Of a stretch of 18,651 nucleotides of DNA, positions 12,001 to 15,000 are shown piece by piece. Numbering within the stretch: position 1 is the stretch's first letter; each line of letters begins with the position of its first letter. The position numbers are program-made. Origin of the DNA: Candidatus Hydrogenedentota bacterium (GTDB lineage Bacteria; Hydrogenedentota; Hydrogenedentia; Hydrogenedentales; SLHB01); assembly GCA_034408725.1 (NCBI GenBank), contig JAWXCN010000018.1:1-18651 (forward strand). Direction: 5' to 3'.

Positions 12001-15000
12001 GAGAATCGCCACGGCTTCGCCATACGCCTTGTGAAGGGTCGGCTTGCCGCGGCGGACATCATCGTCATCCATCGCGGGCAAGTCGTCGTGAATCAGCGAG
12101 TACGTATGAATCATCTCGAGCGCGCACGCCGCCGGAAGCGCCGCGCAGTCGTCACCGGTTATAAGTTCCGCCGCGCCCAGCGCAAGCGCGGGCCGCAGCC
12201 GCTTGCCTCCGGCGAACAGGCTGTAGCGCATTGCATCGCGCAGCGTCGCCGGCGTGTCCGCCCATCGCGAAATGTAAACTTCCAGAGCGGCTTCAGTCCG
12301 CGCAGCCTTCTCAACGAGAAATTGTTCCACCCCCACCGGCGCTCTCCCTTCACACGATTGTAGACGGTGTGCGCCCAATCATCCCATAGCTCCCGCACTT
12401 CTCATCATTCCCATTTATCTCAAAAAAAAGAAAAAGCACGCCAGGGCCCGAAGGTTGCCTAACGTGCATTTTTTGAAAACAAGCTCTACTGACTGGGCGT
12501 CCGCCGCCGCCTTGGAACTTCAGCCTGGCTGACTGGTGCAGCCGCCAAGCCGTCGGCGGCGGAGCCCTTCAGTTACGAAGAACCGCGTCGAAACTAGCGT
12601 TTCTTCTTCGCGGCCGCTTTTTTCTTCGGGGCGGCTTTCTTCTTCGGGGCCGCCTTCTTCTTTGCTGCCTTCTTTTTCGCTGCCATTCTTAGCTCTCCTT
12701 TAAATTGAGCTTCCTACACTAGCGCCGCGTTGTTGAACGTGCAGGCCACCACGGGTGGCCCTGCCAACGGCATGCGCCCGTCTCCGCAGGTGCACTGCGG
12801 AGACAGACCATCGGGCAATGCCCGGTATGGTTCAACTGGTGTATGGTCTCAGCCCCCAGGTGCATGGGTGCTGTAAAACCCTCTTGGAATTCCCCGATCA
12901 GAAATTTGCCACACCCTGGCGGCAATCTGCCCCGGCCAACATCGGACCGCGCCGGTTTCTTTCGCCGCGCCGGATGTCTTCGGAAAAATATGGATGGTTA
13001 GCGTTGCGGCAAGAATGAATGGCGATTGCCCGCCGGGGTATGAATGGCGCCGCTGCTGCGAACCGGTACTGCGCGCAGGTGATTTGCCTGCCGTCGCGAT
13101 CTCCGCGCCCCTTGCGCGTGACCGCTTCGAGTGGTTTGCATGACCGCACCGTTCGCTTTCGCGCCGCTTGTCACCGTGCCACCTCGCACGTCGTGTTCGA
13201 TTCAACTGTGTTCTCGTGAGTGGATTCGCTCCCGCGTTTCCGCCTCGCTCCCCGCCGTCAACTGGTGTGTTGCATGCCACCTACGACGCGTTTACTGCAA
13301 CAACTGTATAAATTTCTATCACGTTGCAAGAAAAAAAACAAGTATTTTTTCAAGAAAAATTTCTTTTCATCGGGTCCGTGGCCGATCTGCGGCGCTACGG
13401 ATCGCCCGGAAATGGATCGATGTGTTCCGTTGCGCGCCGCGTAACAAGCATGTTGGACGTCTCGGCGCATCACGGCGCGCGCAAGCGGCATGAGCGTGTC
13501 TCGCGTGACGTCCCGTTTTTGCAACATGCGGAATCGCCTTGCAAATGCTGGCGATTCCGCAACGAATAAAACTGGCGCGCTATTAATGCGCACGCCGCGA
13601 TCACGCGGCGTCGCCGCCAATGCGCGCGCGGAAAACTGTTTGCAGACGCAAACGCGCCGCGCAGTTTTTCATTCGCCGGCATCGAATTCAGAGGCGCTTC
13701 AAATGCCCGCGGCACCCAAATATTTTTTTGCCGCGAAGGCGCATAACACCGGATTTTCCGCCACCGTTCTCGCATTGCCGTGTCGGTTTTTCGCGCGCCA
13801 GCGATTTTTCCCGCGCGTCCAATAGGCGCGTCACACGAGCGCGAATAGATTCCGCCGCCACTTTTTCGCGCGCCATTCAAGCAGTCCGTTCCGGCGGCTT
13901 CGACTTCGCCGTCCAGAGTTAAACTTCAAATCGGCTCCGCACAAACTGTCCAACCTTCGTCAGGGCATCACGTCCTTCCGGCAAAATCGGCGCATAAAAA
14001 TGCCACACATGGATCATGTCCGGCGCAAGATAAAGCGTCACATCCACGCCGGCGCTTCTCGCGCGTTCCGCCAGCCGGATCGAATCGTCGCGCAAGATTT
14101 CCGCGCCGCCAACGTGAATCAGGAGTGGGGGAAACCCCGTGAAATTAGCGTACAAGGGTGACGCCAGCGGATTGCGCGCTTCCGCGCCGTTCAAATAGCG
14201 GCGCGCAAACGTATCGAGCTGCCAGGGCGACAGCATCGGGTCGCTAGCCGCCACGCTATCGACCGATGCGCCGGTCATCGCCAGGTCGGTCCACGGCGAA
14301 AGACATACGCACGCCGCGGGAAGGGGATCGCCCGCGTCACGCAACGCAACGAGCGACGCCAACGCCAATCCGCCCCCTGCGCTGTCTCCGCCGATTACGA
14401 TCTTTTCCGGCGCGTAGCCCTCCGCGGTCAGCGCACGGTACGTCGCCACTGCATCATCCACCGCCGCCGGAAACGCATGCTCCGGCGCGAGACGATACGC
14501 CACTGACAACACCTGCACGTTCGCGGCCATGGCGAGGAGACCGCAAAACGTCCGGTGCGTATTCAGCGATCCAATGCAGTAGCCCCCACCGTGGAAGTAC
14601 AACATGACACGGTCCGCCGGGCTGCCACGCGGTTCAAACCGCTCCGCCGGAATATCAGCGACCCGTGACGACGATATGGAAACTGATTCCGGTGGTGGAC
14701 CAAGTAGCGGCGTCATCTGTTCGAACCGCGAACGGATTTGGTCGAGTGTCGCGACCTTGCCGAGCGGCCGCGATTGCATCATCGAGACCAACGATTGGAA
14801 CTGAACGCTTGGCATGTCCTTGTATCCTGTTTGGCCGAAATTGGGGGAGAATGCAGAAAGCCTTCCCTCAAAAAAAGAACCGGCCCGGCGAGCATTTGCC
14901 CCGCCGGGCCGGAGAGATTACGCTGTCGTGACGCCGCTGCTAGTTGACAATCGTGATGTTAAACTCAGCGCGACGGTTCAGCTTTCGGTTGGCATCGCCA

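Follow-up and report, generated by a model that had tools for sequence, protein, structure and literature searches.

A conserved multi-helix RNA domain, new to Rfam, lies ahead of a small AKKK-repeat gene in Candidatus Hydrogenedentota

Autoregulatory translational operators are best exemplified by the leaders of ribosomal-protein genes (S15, L20 and L1) and by the thrS operator. Long structured 5′ UTRs are also a feature of cspA-type genes, which encode small, abundant nucleic-acid-binding proteins. For a histone-like product, two papers describe the Chlamydia gene hctA, which encodes Hc1 and whose translation is repressed by the sRNA IhtA (PMC3469542, PMC4355289). In a further study, suhB is controlled by BoxA and Nus factors acting in the mRNA leader (PMC5725501). 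A limited literature search found no description of regulatory RNAs in Hydrogenedentota.

Here we analyse contig JAWXCN010000018.1 of a Candidatus Hydrogenedentota assembly (GCA_034408725.1; the window, 18,651 nt), which carries a folded RNA domain upstream of a 30-codon ORF made of AKKK repeats (Table 1). The host family is uncultivated and most likely falls within Hydrogenedentota. Proteins of this type, small, polycationic and built of Ala/Lys repeats, occur widely and are poorly understood, and the one encoded here comes with an unusually elaborate leader, about ten times the length of the ORF. Like the ribosomal-protein and thrS operators, the domain is a folded, covarying RNA beside a ribosome-binding site, with conserved loops, a fixed distance to the start codon and no terminator. 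Unlike the ribosomal-protein leaders, it matches no Rfam leader, and the product is a low-complexity poly-Lys/Ala protein rather than a folded RNA binder; a target RNA for the leader to mimic is not known to us. With the cspA type it would share a long structured leader on a small, highly expressed gene and a proposed autoregulation through that leader, with no relation in sequence or fold. The parallel with hctA would lie in control, at the RNA level, over how much of a small, highly basic, histone-like protein is translated, one that in excess would condense the nucleoid. There, however, a trans-acting sRNA pairs with the mRNA, whereas here the candidate regulator is a large cis structure, in an unrelated phylum and with no sequence relation.

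Table 1. Coordinates of the RNA domain, the AKKK-repeat ORF and flanking features (contig positions)
Feature	Position	Strand	Remarks
AT-rich promoter block, predicted	13313..13375	minus	UP-like A/T tract; invariant in 4/4 aligned g1 genomes
Candidate −35, TTGTTT	13341-13336	minus	17-nt spacer with TG to the −10
Candidate −10, TAGAAA	13318-13313	minus	inferred start near 13306
5′-terminal hairpin followed by box 1, ACACCAGUUGA	13258..13268 (box)	minus	
Box 2, ACAGUUGAA	13201..13209	minus	same 9-10-mer in rRNA operon
Multi-helix RNA domain (155 nt)	12874-12720	minus	3′ end 33 nt short of the AKKK-repeat ORF
P1 hairpin, UGCACC loop	12850..12873	minus	double changes in 4/5 pairs of helix 1
Junction box 3, CAGUUGAACC	12829..12838	minus	kept in most of 14 sequences; variable in G016, G021, G022
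P2, ACCA/UGGU outer helix around CGGGC-loop-GCCCG hairpin	12807..12831	minus	covariation across 10 genera
P3 hairpin, GCAC(C) loop	12780..12804	minus	double changes in all 9 pairs (alignment A8)
P4 domain: outer helix, inner helix and apical hairpin P5	12721..12778	minus	
P5 apical hairpin, CCACC-YGU-GGUGG	12758-12745	minus	98% paired
Purine-rich linker with Shine-Dalgarno (SD)	12687..12719; SD GGAG 12698-12695	minus	
30-codon AKKK-repeat ORF, MAAKKKAAKKKAAPKKKAAPKKKAAAKKKR	12686-12594; ATG 12686	minus	sole such ORF in the assembly
Long 3′ UTR hairpin	12495..12567	minus	GCACC at apex (12539-12535)
Intrinsic terminator	12422..12467	minus	conserved stem GCACGUUAGG...CCUGGCGUGC and U-run

Judged from its strong SD, the dominance of third-position changes (16/12/38 differences at codon positions 1/2/3 between congeners) and length differences that stay in frame, as the initial annotation had noted, the AKKK ORF is a real gene. 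A strong SD precedes it at all loci, and about half of its codons specify Lys. Its length varies from 30 to 104 codons across 14 loci, one of which contains masked bases, and from 23 to 145 codons in a wider comparison, with repeat expansions. The earlier label "histone-H1-like" suits the composition of the product but finds no counterpart in family databases: five AKKK proteins matched no Pfam or NCBIfam family at E ≤ 1, and no Pfam match exceeded the gathering score that would place them in PF07382 (HC2). This family occurs in just 15–23% of the members of the nearest Atlas clusters, with a low recognition value, and serves as a lead only.

The 155-nt domain is a genuine, conserved multi-helix RNA. 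Its predicted minimum free energy is −76.1 kcal/mol, compared with −61.5 ± 4.0 kcal/mol for shuffled sequences (z = −3.61), none of which was equally stable (0/200). Covariation had previously been counted on an alignment fitted to the model itself; it holds on alignment A1, produced by MAFFT without fitting to any model from 14 upstream regions of three genera (five from g1, three from g18 and six from g17). RNAalifold derived from A1 a consensus structure of 31 pairs in four hairpins, in which 93.1% of cells are paired, against 32.6–45.7% when the structure is slid. Changes on both sides affect 18 of the 31 pairs, a number reached by none of 500 shuffles, and the covariation score is 0.421 (against at most 0.137). 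An unfitted alignment of the P2–P3 core, comprising 27 sequences from ten genera, gave 87.8% paired cells (31–41% when slid) and double changes in 17 of 19 pairs (0/500 shuffles); across these genera, the outer pair of P2 changed from AU to GC nine times. Fold stability and covariation on unfitted alignments thus bear out a folded RNA on the minus strand at this position.

Of the seven helices originally proposed, the four hairpins are recovered by the unfitted alignment, while the outer helices are less well supported: P1a, P4a, P4b and the closing helix have 62–76% of their cells paired on unfitted alignments. When the outer helices were written by hand onto the MAFFT alignment A4, pairing was 71% for P1 with its outer part, 62.5% for P4a and 76% for the closing helix; the last showed no double changes on A4 and is therefore not claimed. 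P1a, P4a and P4b draw on fitted alignments or inspection, P4a and P4b specifically on folds of individual sequences together with the fitted alignment A7; MAFFT aligns both poorly. We rejected a candidate pseudoknot that would pair CAGUUGAAC with GUUCAAC of the P4 bulge: the match is perfect in genome G000 and, by inspection, absent in the other genera.

Covariance model R1 repeated the earlier counts: it matched 14 of the 54 genomes of the family and, at order level, 14 of 133, which represent 3 of 64 genera. Each matched genome held one full-length copy (E ≤ 2.4e-26; next-best family match E = 0.089), in keeping with the single copy described before. With filters off, the four best non-seed matches among 32 loci (E = 0.008–0.05) were all on the correct strand and preceded an AKKK start codon by 24–56 nt; a search alignment at E ≤ 0.5 took in reverse-strand hairpins and was left unused. 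The proposed restriction to three genera does not apply to the P2–P3 core, for which model R2 gave a single strong match in 26 of 54 family genomes (eight genera), mostly recovering its own training sequences (one of the 26 matches is new, and training members G002 and G007 were missed). Outside the family, the core was found in none of 80 genomes. A strict-pattern scan of metagenomes returned three stretches, all R1-positive, of which two resemble the G000 and G017 sequences and the third is a new g1-like variant, adding little depth. Rfam 15 yielded no match at the gathering score in the whole window and, at E ≤ 10 within 12300-13400, seven noise matches (best E = 0.84; at most 17.9 bits against gathering scores of 37–64). 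As first noted, the domain matches no Rfam family: the structure is new to Rfam and constitutes a previously undescribed RNA family of known kind.

Relative to the ORF, the anatomy is as first described, with the domain ending 33 nt before the ORF and the spacing nearly constant: the ATG lies 22–26 nt past the 3′ end of the R1 model in 14 of 14 loci, so that, as in an operator, a folded element keeps a fixed distance from the ribosome-binding site beside it. The domain is always directly ahead of an AKKK ORF on the same strand and never occurs apart from one. The SD is predicted to be accessible, with a mean unpaired probability of at least 0.5 in 17 of 23 sequences and greater openness than the leader body in 21 of 23; candidate pairings of the SD with AGCUC (in g1) or with the 5′ strand of P3 were not conserved on inspection and were rejected. 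No terminator or U-run was found between domain and ORF, the sole canonical terminator following the 3′ UTR, which argues against transcription attenuation. With no terminator at its end and an SD that it leaves unsequestered, we take the domain to be a translational operator. Our preferred, still tentative reading is that this operator acts in cis and is bound by a trans factor.

The architecture of the domain also invites comparison with riboswitches, in which case a ligand of the junction, either a small molecule or an ion (for example Mg2+, a polyamine, ppGpp or some other signal of growth state), would alter access to the start site. In common with riboswitch aptamers it has stems that covary and a complex multi-helix junction in which unpaired nucleotides are conserved; it is present in single copy and always precedes the same class of gene. 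No known class was matched. However, neither an expression platform (a terminator or a conserved SD-sequestering helix) nor a candidate ligand was found, and the pocket-like nucleotides vary or recur as linear boxes: the junction box takes the forms CAGUUGAACC, CAGUAGAGCC, GCAUACAACC and CAACAGGACC across leaders, and the same box is linear at other places of the leader as well as in the rRNA operon. Moreover, while 11 of 14 sequences have GCACC in the loops of P1 and P3, an entire genus, g18, lacks it in both, and the matching loop in the 3′ UTR better suits a macromolecular partner. Taken together, we consider a riboswitch quite unlikely. GGUGG and UGGU resemble T-box words, and the helices that contain them covary in the wider family; a search with the T-box model RF00230 gave no match at E ≤ 10, and no terminator separates domain and ORF.

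Regarding transcription of the proposed operator, the initial annotation reported no sigma-70-type promoter. A candidate block is nevertheless conserved: of 21 leaders examined, 20 have a putative promoter of the style TTGCTA-N17-TGnTACACA at 570–700 nt ahead of the ATG, and no nearer positionally conserved candidate was found. In this genome, the block is most likely a promoter of sigma-70 type, and a strong one, from which transcription would start about 620 nt before the ATG. Against this, a promoter scan tool reported no sites in 12200-14000; its rule of a T at position 6 excludes −10 forms such as TAGAAA and TACACA. The −10 TACAC also occurs in an rRNA promoter of this genome. The cis-acting leader remains the best reading, but the 155 nt are probably not the whole element and form the ribosome-proximal part of a leader of about 0.6 kb. 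From these elements, we infer an mRNA of about 0.9 kb, roughly 10% of it coding, that would comprise, in order, a 5′ hairpin, two CAGUUGA boxes, a variable middle, the structured domain, the open SD and ORF, the 3′ UTR hairpin and the terminator.

Within this leader, the 11-mer of box 1 has three copies in the genome (1.9 expected), two of them in the leader itself. CAGUUG stands at the place of box 1, and CAGUUGAA at that of box 2, in 10 of 14 aligned leaders each. The box 2 sequence ACAGUUGAA(U) occurs twice in the 16S-23S spacer, with a variant in the 16S leader, and equals the 3′ end and flank of the family rRNA boxA, whose sequence is UUCUUUGANAGUUGAA and which is present in 13 of 54 genomes. 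As with suhB, a protein gene may have taken up an rRNA-operon signal into its 5′ UTR; in contrast to BoxA (rRNA form GUUCUUUGANA; gamma-proteobacterial consensus GYTCTTTAANA), the leader boxes lack the GYUCUUU half, have only ACAGUUGAA in common with the rRNA boxA region and by that consensus do not count as BoxA. Two of them lie about 500 nt from the start codon. If the CAGUUGAA box is functional, the AKKK gene would be tied to rRNA synthesis. Comparison of the leader with the rRNA leader and spacer by blastn gave nothing past the 10-mer (E of at least 2.1). Mimicry of, or pairing with, tRNA was also considered and rejected: among 45 predicted tRNAs, GGUGC occurs in one, UCAACUG in one and CAGUUGA in none.

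These upstream elements could also belong to a constitutive structural leader, with neither ligand nor switch, in which the domain and the 5′ hairpin would shield a very highly expressed small mRNA from RNases and Rho or guide its processing and so keep it stable and well translated. A strong rRNA-like promoter, a long untranslated leader, an open SD, a hairpin seen by inspection at the inferred 5′ end of each leader (when 14 leaders were run through RNAalifold, their first 170 nt gave no consensus pair) and a box common to the rRNA operon, a site of antitermination and processing signals, all agree with this view. Stabilisers are usually simple hairpins, however, whereas conservation here goes beyond pairing to the sequence of several loops and of one helix, and the ATG spacing is held constant. 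Furthermore, short-leader lineages do without the domain: the AKKK genes of g9 and g22 have the same promoter style 75–85 nt from the ATG and a leader that lacks it. We therefore rate a purely structural role as unlikely, albeit with a real chance of being correct.

For the translational operator, we propose that transcription would start near 13306, at the promoter block, and run to the terminator, and that a trans factor on the folded domain, 22–26 nt ahead of the start codon, would impede the ribosome or trap it. Binding may involve the GCACC loops, which are conserved in sequence, together with the CCACC/GGUGG hairpin and the matching GCACC loop of the 3′ UTR. Our first guess for the binder is the encoded basic protein, in negative feedback on a product that would be harmful in excess; such an arrangement would show how cells restrain a potentially nucleoid-condensing polycation. 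The second guess is a ribosome-synthesis factor, suggested by the CAGUUGAA box and the promoter style that the leader has in common with the rRNA operon. Against the operator, an unstructured poly-Lys/Ala protein is unlikely to be a sequence-specific RNA binder, and the domain is dispensable in g9 and g22, whose AKKK genes manage from short leaders. Hairpins with a GCACC loop are not enriched genome-wide (256, compared with 186–412 for five control 5-mers) and hence do not point to a regulon under a factor that binds GCACC.

Downstream of the ORF, both the 3′ UTR and the terminator of the initial annotation are present (Table 1); a simple scan had missed the terminator owing to its long loop. 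GCACC forms the apex of the 3′ UTR hairpin in nine of ten g1, g17 and g18 sequences folded. As also reported before, contigs of relatives (90–95% identity) assembled from RNA libraries, a source that does not in itself prove transcription, span 12486-12765 and 12664-12779 and take in the 3′ UTR, the ORF and the 3′ end of the domain, one contig with 46 nt of it. They stem from four RNA runs, each with 5–6% of the sampled words, of which X1 and X2 contain the same contigs and are perhaps not independent. The contigs end at 12779, with none on 12780-13400, and lend no support to the long leader, although the gap does not count as evidence of absence.

The small coding share of the inferred transcript, about 10%, and its elaborate structure raise the question of a separate or dual-function RNA, in which the 155-nt domain or the leader of about 0.6 kb, set free by processing or transcribed separately, would act in trans, with the ORF as a passenger or as part of an RNA-peptide particle. 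An independent sRNA would be expected to have signals of its own, yet the domain has no conserved promoter-like site just upstream and is followed by no terminator. Its distance to the ORF is constant, it is never found away from an AKKK ORF, and RNA-library contigs join its 3′ end to the ORF. We hold this to be improbable. Similarly slim are the prospects of a more speculative version, in which the whole transcript, with its rRNA-style promoter, the box in common with the rRNA operon, the 5′ hairpin and the large folded domain, would be a mostly non-coding RNA, expressed like rRNA and acting with its own poly-Lys/Ala peptide. The peptide would then bind its own RNA through the GCACC loops at both ends, and either charge titration would set the level of free peptide or an RNA-peptide particle would tie nucleoid or ribosome packaging to growth rate. 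If true, RNA and polycation would form a cis-encoded pair for which no bacterial counterpart has been described.

The gene downstream of the terminator region allows one further reading, leader-peptide attenuation, by which the Lys-rich ORF would sense charged tRNA-Lys and control read-through into ispA. Indeed, ispA follows on the same strand in seven of eight loci compared, and the codon usage of the ORF would lend itself to such sensing. Attenuation is nonetheless scarcely credible in view of the very strong SD, the spread in ORF length with its repeat expansions, a conserved canonical terminator with no visible antiterminator alternative, and the position of the domain, upstream of the ORF and not between ORF and terminator. 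The nearest relatives of ispA are found in Ca. Hydrogenedentes MAGs, at 70% identity.

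We aligned the 263 nt 5′ of the ATG from 14 genomes (five of genus g1, three of g18 and six of g17) with MAFFT only, because the counts in the initial annotation came from an alignment fitted to a covariance model. RNAalifold predicted four hairpins with 31 pairs from this alignment. In total, 93.1% of cells pair, versus 32.6–45.7% once the 3′ partners are shifted by 1–3 columns; 18 of the 31 pairs show changes on both sides, a number reached in none of 500 shuffles, and the covariation score is 0.421 (control maximum 0.137). The isolated motif has a minimum free energy of -76.1 kcal/mol; dinucleotide shuffles give -61.5 ± 4.0 (z = -3.61), and none of 200 was as stable. 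The motif is therefore real, and the case for it is somewhat stronger with an alignment fitted to no model and with the wider core described below. Per-sequence folds show the outer part of helix P1 and a two-part P4 stem (P4a/P4b) bearing the apical hairpin P5, which by eye covary (P4b variants GUUG/CAAC, UGG/CCA, GGUGU/ACACC and CGGG/CCCG); MAFFT aligned the outer helices poorly (62–76% of cells pair). P5 reads CCACC-YGU-GGUGG, invariant in the 14 sequences and covarying in distant members. When four distant members were added in an alignment fitted to R1, our covariance model of the full motif, and hence biased towards structure, 83.8% of cells paired and 38 of 49 pairs carried double changes. 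Rfam 15 gave no match at the gathering score in the whole window and only noise at E ≤ 10 around the motif, which represents a new RNA family, though of a kind already known.

Features at the locus of the structured RNA motif and the AKKK ORF
Feature	Position	Strand
Alpha/beta-hydrolase gene (hormone-sensitive-lipase type)	14815-13919	minus
Gap of ~1 kb without a credible ORF	between hydrolase gene and motif	minus
Motif	12874-12720	minus
Purine-rich linker with strong Shine-Dalgarno GGAG	GGAG at 12698-12695	minus
30-codon ORF, MAAKKKAAKKKAAPKKKAAPKKKAAAKKKR	12686-12594	minus
Long hairpin in 3′ UTR	~12567-12495	minus
Intrinsic terminator	~12467-12422	minus
Farnesyl-diphosphate synthase gene (ispA)	12378-11473	minus

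Judged from its sequence, the 30-codon Lys/Ala-repeat (AKKK) ORF is a gene, the only one of its type in the source genome. Correctly spaced AAAGGAGG-like Shine-Dalgarno (SD) sequences stand at every locus, ORF length varies between 23 and 145 codons because repeats change in frame, and the five g1 ORFs carry 16, 12 and 38 differences on codon positions 1, 2 and 3 (AAA/AAG and GCN synonyms). In one ORF (G024, locus L013) part of the sequence is masked or undetermined and reads as X, so the length of this ORF is uncertain. At three loci (L015, L024 and L026), blastn with the ORF retrieved proteins of 589–609 aa in which a long Lys/Ala-rich stretch of AKKK type comes after an acidic N-terminus. 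Pfam and NCBIfam searches with five AKKK proteins gave no family at E ≤ 1. For a 104-aa homologue, the nearest clusters in the protein Atlas contain PF07382 (HC2) in 15–23% of members; because recognition was low, this likeness is a compositional lead only.

R1 (168 positions, 49 pairs) exactly reproduced the earlier counts: one full-length match (E ≤ 2.4e-26; next best, 0.089) in 14 of 54 family genomes, and 14 of 133 genomes across the order, from 3 of 64 genera. The accompanying statement that the motif is restricted to three genera did not hold. With filters off, R1 was run on 32 loci (71,463 nt) that surround AKKK genes outside these three genera, and its four best matches (E 0.008–0.05), none of them seed sequences, fell in G006 (g7), G036 (g24), G019 (g15) and G046 (g30); all four lie 24–56 nt 5′ of an AKKK start codon on the correct strand. 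We then aligned the P2-P3 core with MAFFT in 27 sequences from 10 genera, a biased choice picked by eye for the P2 hairpin: 87.8% of cells pair versus 31–41% when slid, 17 of 19 pairs show double changes (0 of 500 shuffles), and the score is 0.509 against at most 0.141. A model of this core, R2 (64 positions, 19 pairs), matches 26 of 54 family genomes, exactly once each at E ≤ 6e-4; they come from eight genera (five in g1, six in g17, three in g18, eight of eight in g30, and one each in g7, g12, g15 and g24). Of the 26 matches, 25 are training sequences, only G045 is new, and the training members G002 and G007 were not re-found. Outside the family, R2 matched none of 80 order genomes. The three-genus restriction reflects limited sensitivity rather than biology. 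Genera g2, g3, g8, g13, g14 and g25 have long, GC-rich, hairpin-dense leaders that resemble the motif by inspection, in layout only.

Six g30 loci (L012, L018, L022, L023, L025 and L027) carry their own version of the 3′ domain ~200 nt 5′ of the ATG, in which GCCA/UGGC replaces ACCA/UGGU, the P3 hairpin has a CCAC loop and P4/P5 differ; the g30 leader also has a well-conserved middle part with G-rich blocks. A small hairpin at 12925-12906 (minus strand), 30–60 nt 5′ of P1, covaries by eye: g1 has GCCGC...GCGGC, and two g17 genomes have GCGAGUC...ACUCGC; equivalents occur in G014, G015, G017, G021 and G022, followed by a conserved UCCSA...GGGR stretch. The structured domain may extend 5′ beyond 12874.

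The reported lack of a sigma-70-type promoter was not upheld. The scan tool found no site in 12200-14000, and it accepts only -10 hexamers whose sixth base is T, a rule that excludes the -10 of a candidate block conserved upstream. This AT-rich stretch (~13375-13305) is the sole strongly conserved block of the 1-kb upstream gap in the congener comparison, and the same block is the most AT-rich 40-mer within 1.2 kb 5′ of the ATG in g1, g2, g17, g18 and g30 (-597 to -700). It comprises an A/T-rich UP-like tract, a -35 (TTGCTA; TTGTTT in g1) and a -10 (TACACA; TAGAAA in G000, the source genome); the 17 nt between these two hexamers end in TG. A loose promoter pattern (TTGNNN, 16–18 nt, TANNN[TA]) matches the distal block in 20 of 21 leaders and misses it only in G014 (TAAAAG); nearer the motif, eight extra matches in seven of these leaders are scattered and not conserved in position. 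Further genera have an equivalent block 313–747 nt upstream, and the 16S gene of G000 is preceded by two promoter-like sites, one of them TTGACA-N17-TACACT. The same promoter style (TTGACG or TTGCGT, N17, TACAAT or TACACT) is found 75–85 nt from the ATG of short-leader AKKK genes (g9, g22 and an extra paralogue of G045). The conserved block and these comparisons argue for an mRNA start near 13306, which we infer from conservation only; the 155-nt motif would then be the last quarter of a ~620-nt leader.

The short-leader loci (L021 and L030 in g22, L029 and L138 in g9, L016 in G045) have leaders of ~50–80 nt and canonical promoters; lacking the structured domain, they are natural "deletion" variants, and some g30 genomes hold both long-leader and short-leader copies.

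Four sequencing runs hold 5–6% of sampled words, three on record as RNA libraries and one guessed to be RNA. Their contigs span 12486-12765 (the same contig in runs X1 and X2) and 12664-12779 (run X3), reach no further upstream than 12779, and are 85–95% alike to the window, so they derive from relatives. As initially claimed, they link the ORF to the 3′ UTR on one side and to the 3′ end of the motif on the other; such contigs can include DNA and cannot show transcript ends. That the motif acts as a released or dual-function RNA is quite unlikely.

A cis-acting leader remains the best interpretation of the motif, although the first proposal, 155 nt in three genera, understates its range and probably also its length. 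Transcription attenuation is excluded because no terminator lies between motif and ORF. In predicted ensembles of the last 200 nt of the leader plus 30 nt of the ORF, the mean unpaired probability of the SD is at least 0.5 in 17 of 23 sequences, the SD is more open than the leader body (0.28–0.34) in 21, and no anti-SD pairing is conserved. Since the SD is open and lacks such pairing, the default state of AKKK translation would be "on". A constitutive leader with a stabilising, anti-Rho or processing role is unlikely, and a riboswitch without a recognisable platform rather unlikely.

All 14 genomes keep the folded domain 22–26 nt from the ATG. Eleven of 14 sequences have UGCACC as the P1 loop and GCAC(C) as the P3 loop; the three from g18 have neither. 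GCACC recurs at the apex of the 3′ UTR hairpin in 9 of 10 g1, g17 and g18 sequences folded, g18 included (G016 lacks it). Genome-wide, GCACC-loop hairpins are not enriched. A large domain at fixed spacing, with loops conserved in sequence that recur in the 3′ UTR, best resembles an operator bound by a macromolecule, an arrangement also seen in ribosomal-protein leaders and the thrS leader. We tentatively favour such an operator, for which the AKKK product itself, a polycation whose excess would be harmful, would be the most economical binder. Two reports on Chlamydia hctA and IhtA provide a precedent for RNA-level control of such a protein (PMC3469542, PMC4355289).

Downstream, the terminator stem GCACGUUAGG...CCUGGCGUGC (12467-12436) is kept in sequence across loci of g1, g17, g18 and g2, which is unusual for a plain terminator. 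Attenuation of ispA through the Lys codons of the ORF is highly improbable. The host probably belongs to Hydrogenedentota: the closest relatives of the synthase (70% identity) are from MAGs labelled Candidatus Hydrogenedentes or Hydrogenedentota. A RuBisCO-large-subunit-like protein at 9838-11391 (minus strand) scores far under the cut-offs of all typed RuBisCO forms (best, type III, 81.5 bits against 497) and is probably a RuBisCO-like protein without assigned function.

The G000 leader contains three CAGUUGA-type boxes, at 13268, 13209 and 12838. The 11-mer ACACCAGUUGA has three genome copies (1.9 expected), two of them inside this leader; boxes 1 and 2 each lie 3′ of a hairpin and persist in 10 of 14 aligned leaders. 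The rRNA operon of G000 shares this box: its 16S-23S spacer has two copies of ACAGUUGAA(U), and a variant, GAGUUGAAU, lies ~200 nt 5′ of the 16S gene. Two of the three rRNA-operon copies, the one in the 16S leader and the second in the spacer, stand directly 3′ of GUUCUUUGA. The GUUCUUUGANA of the rRNA operon corresponds to the BoxA consensus GYTCTTTAANA, as given for gamma-proteobacteria in PMC5725501. The leader boxes have only the last BoxA bases and the 3′ flank in common with it and are therefore by definition not BoxA; blastn of the leader against the rRNA leader and spacer found nothing further in common. The 16-mer TTCTTTGANAGTTGAA occurs in one or two copies in 13 of 54 family genomes, ~2.2 kb apart where there are two, and a control pattern matches once. 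The rRNA boxA of the family has a fixed 3′ extension, UUCUUUGANAGUUGAA (one or two copies in 13 of 54 genomes), whose paired copies flank the 16S gene ~2.2 kb apart; on the rRNA-operon contig of G000 (C151), a third CAGUUGAAC lies just 3′ of the 16S gene.
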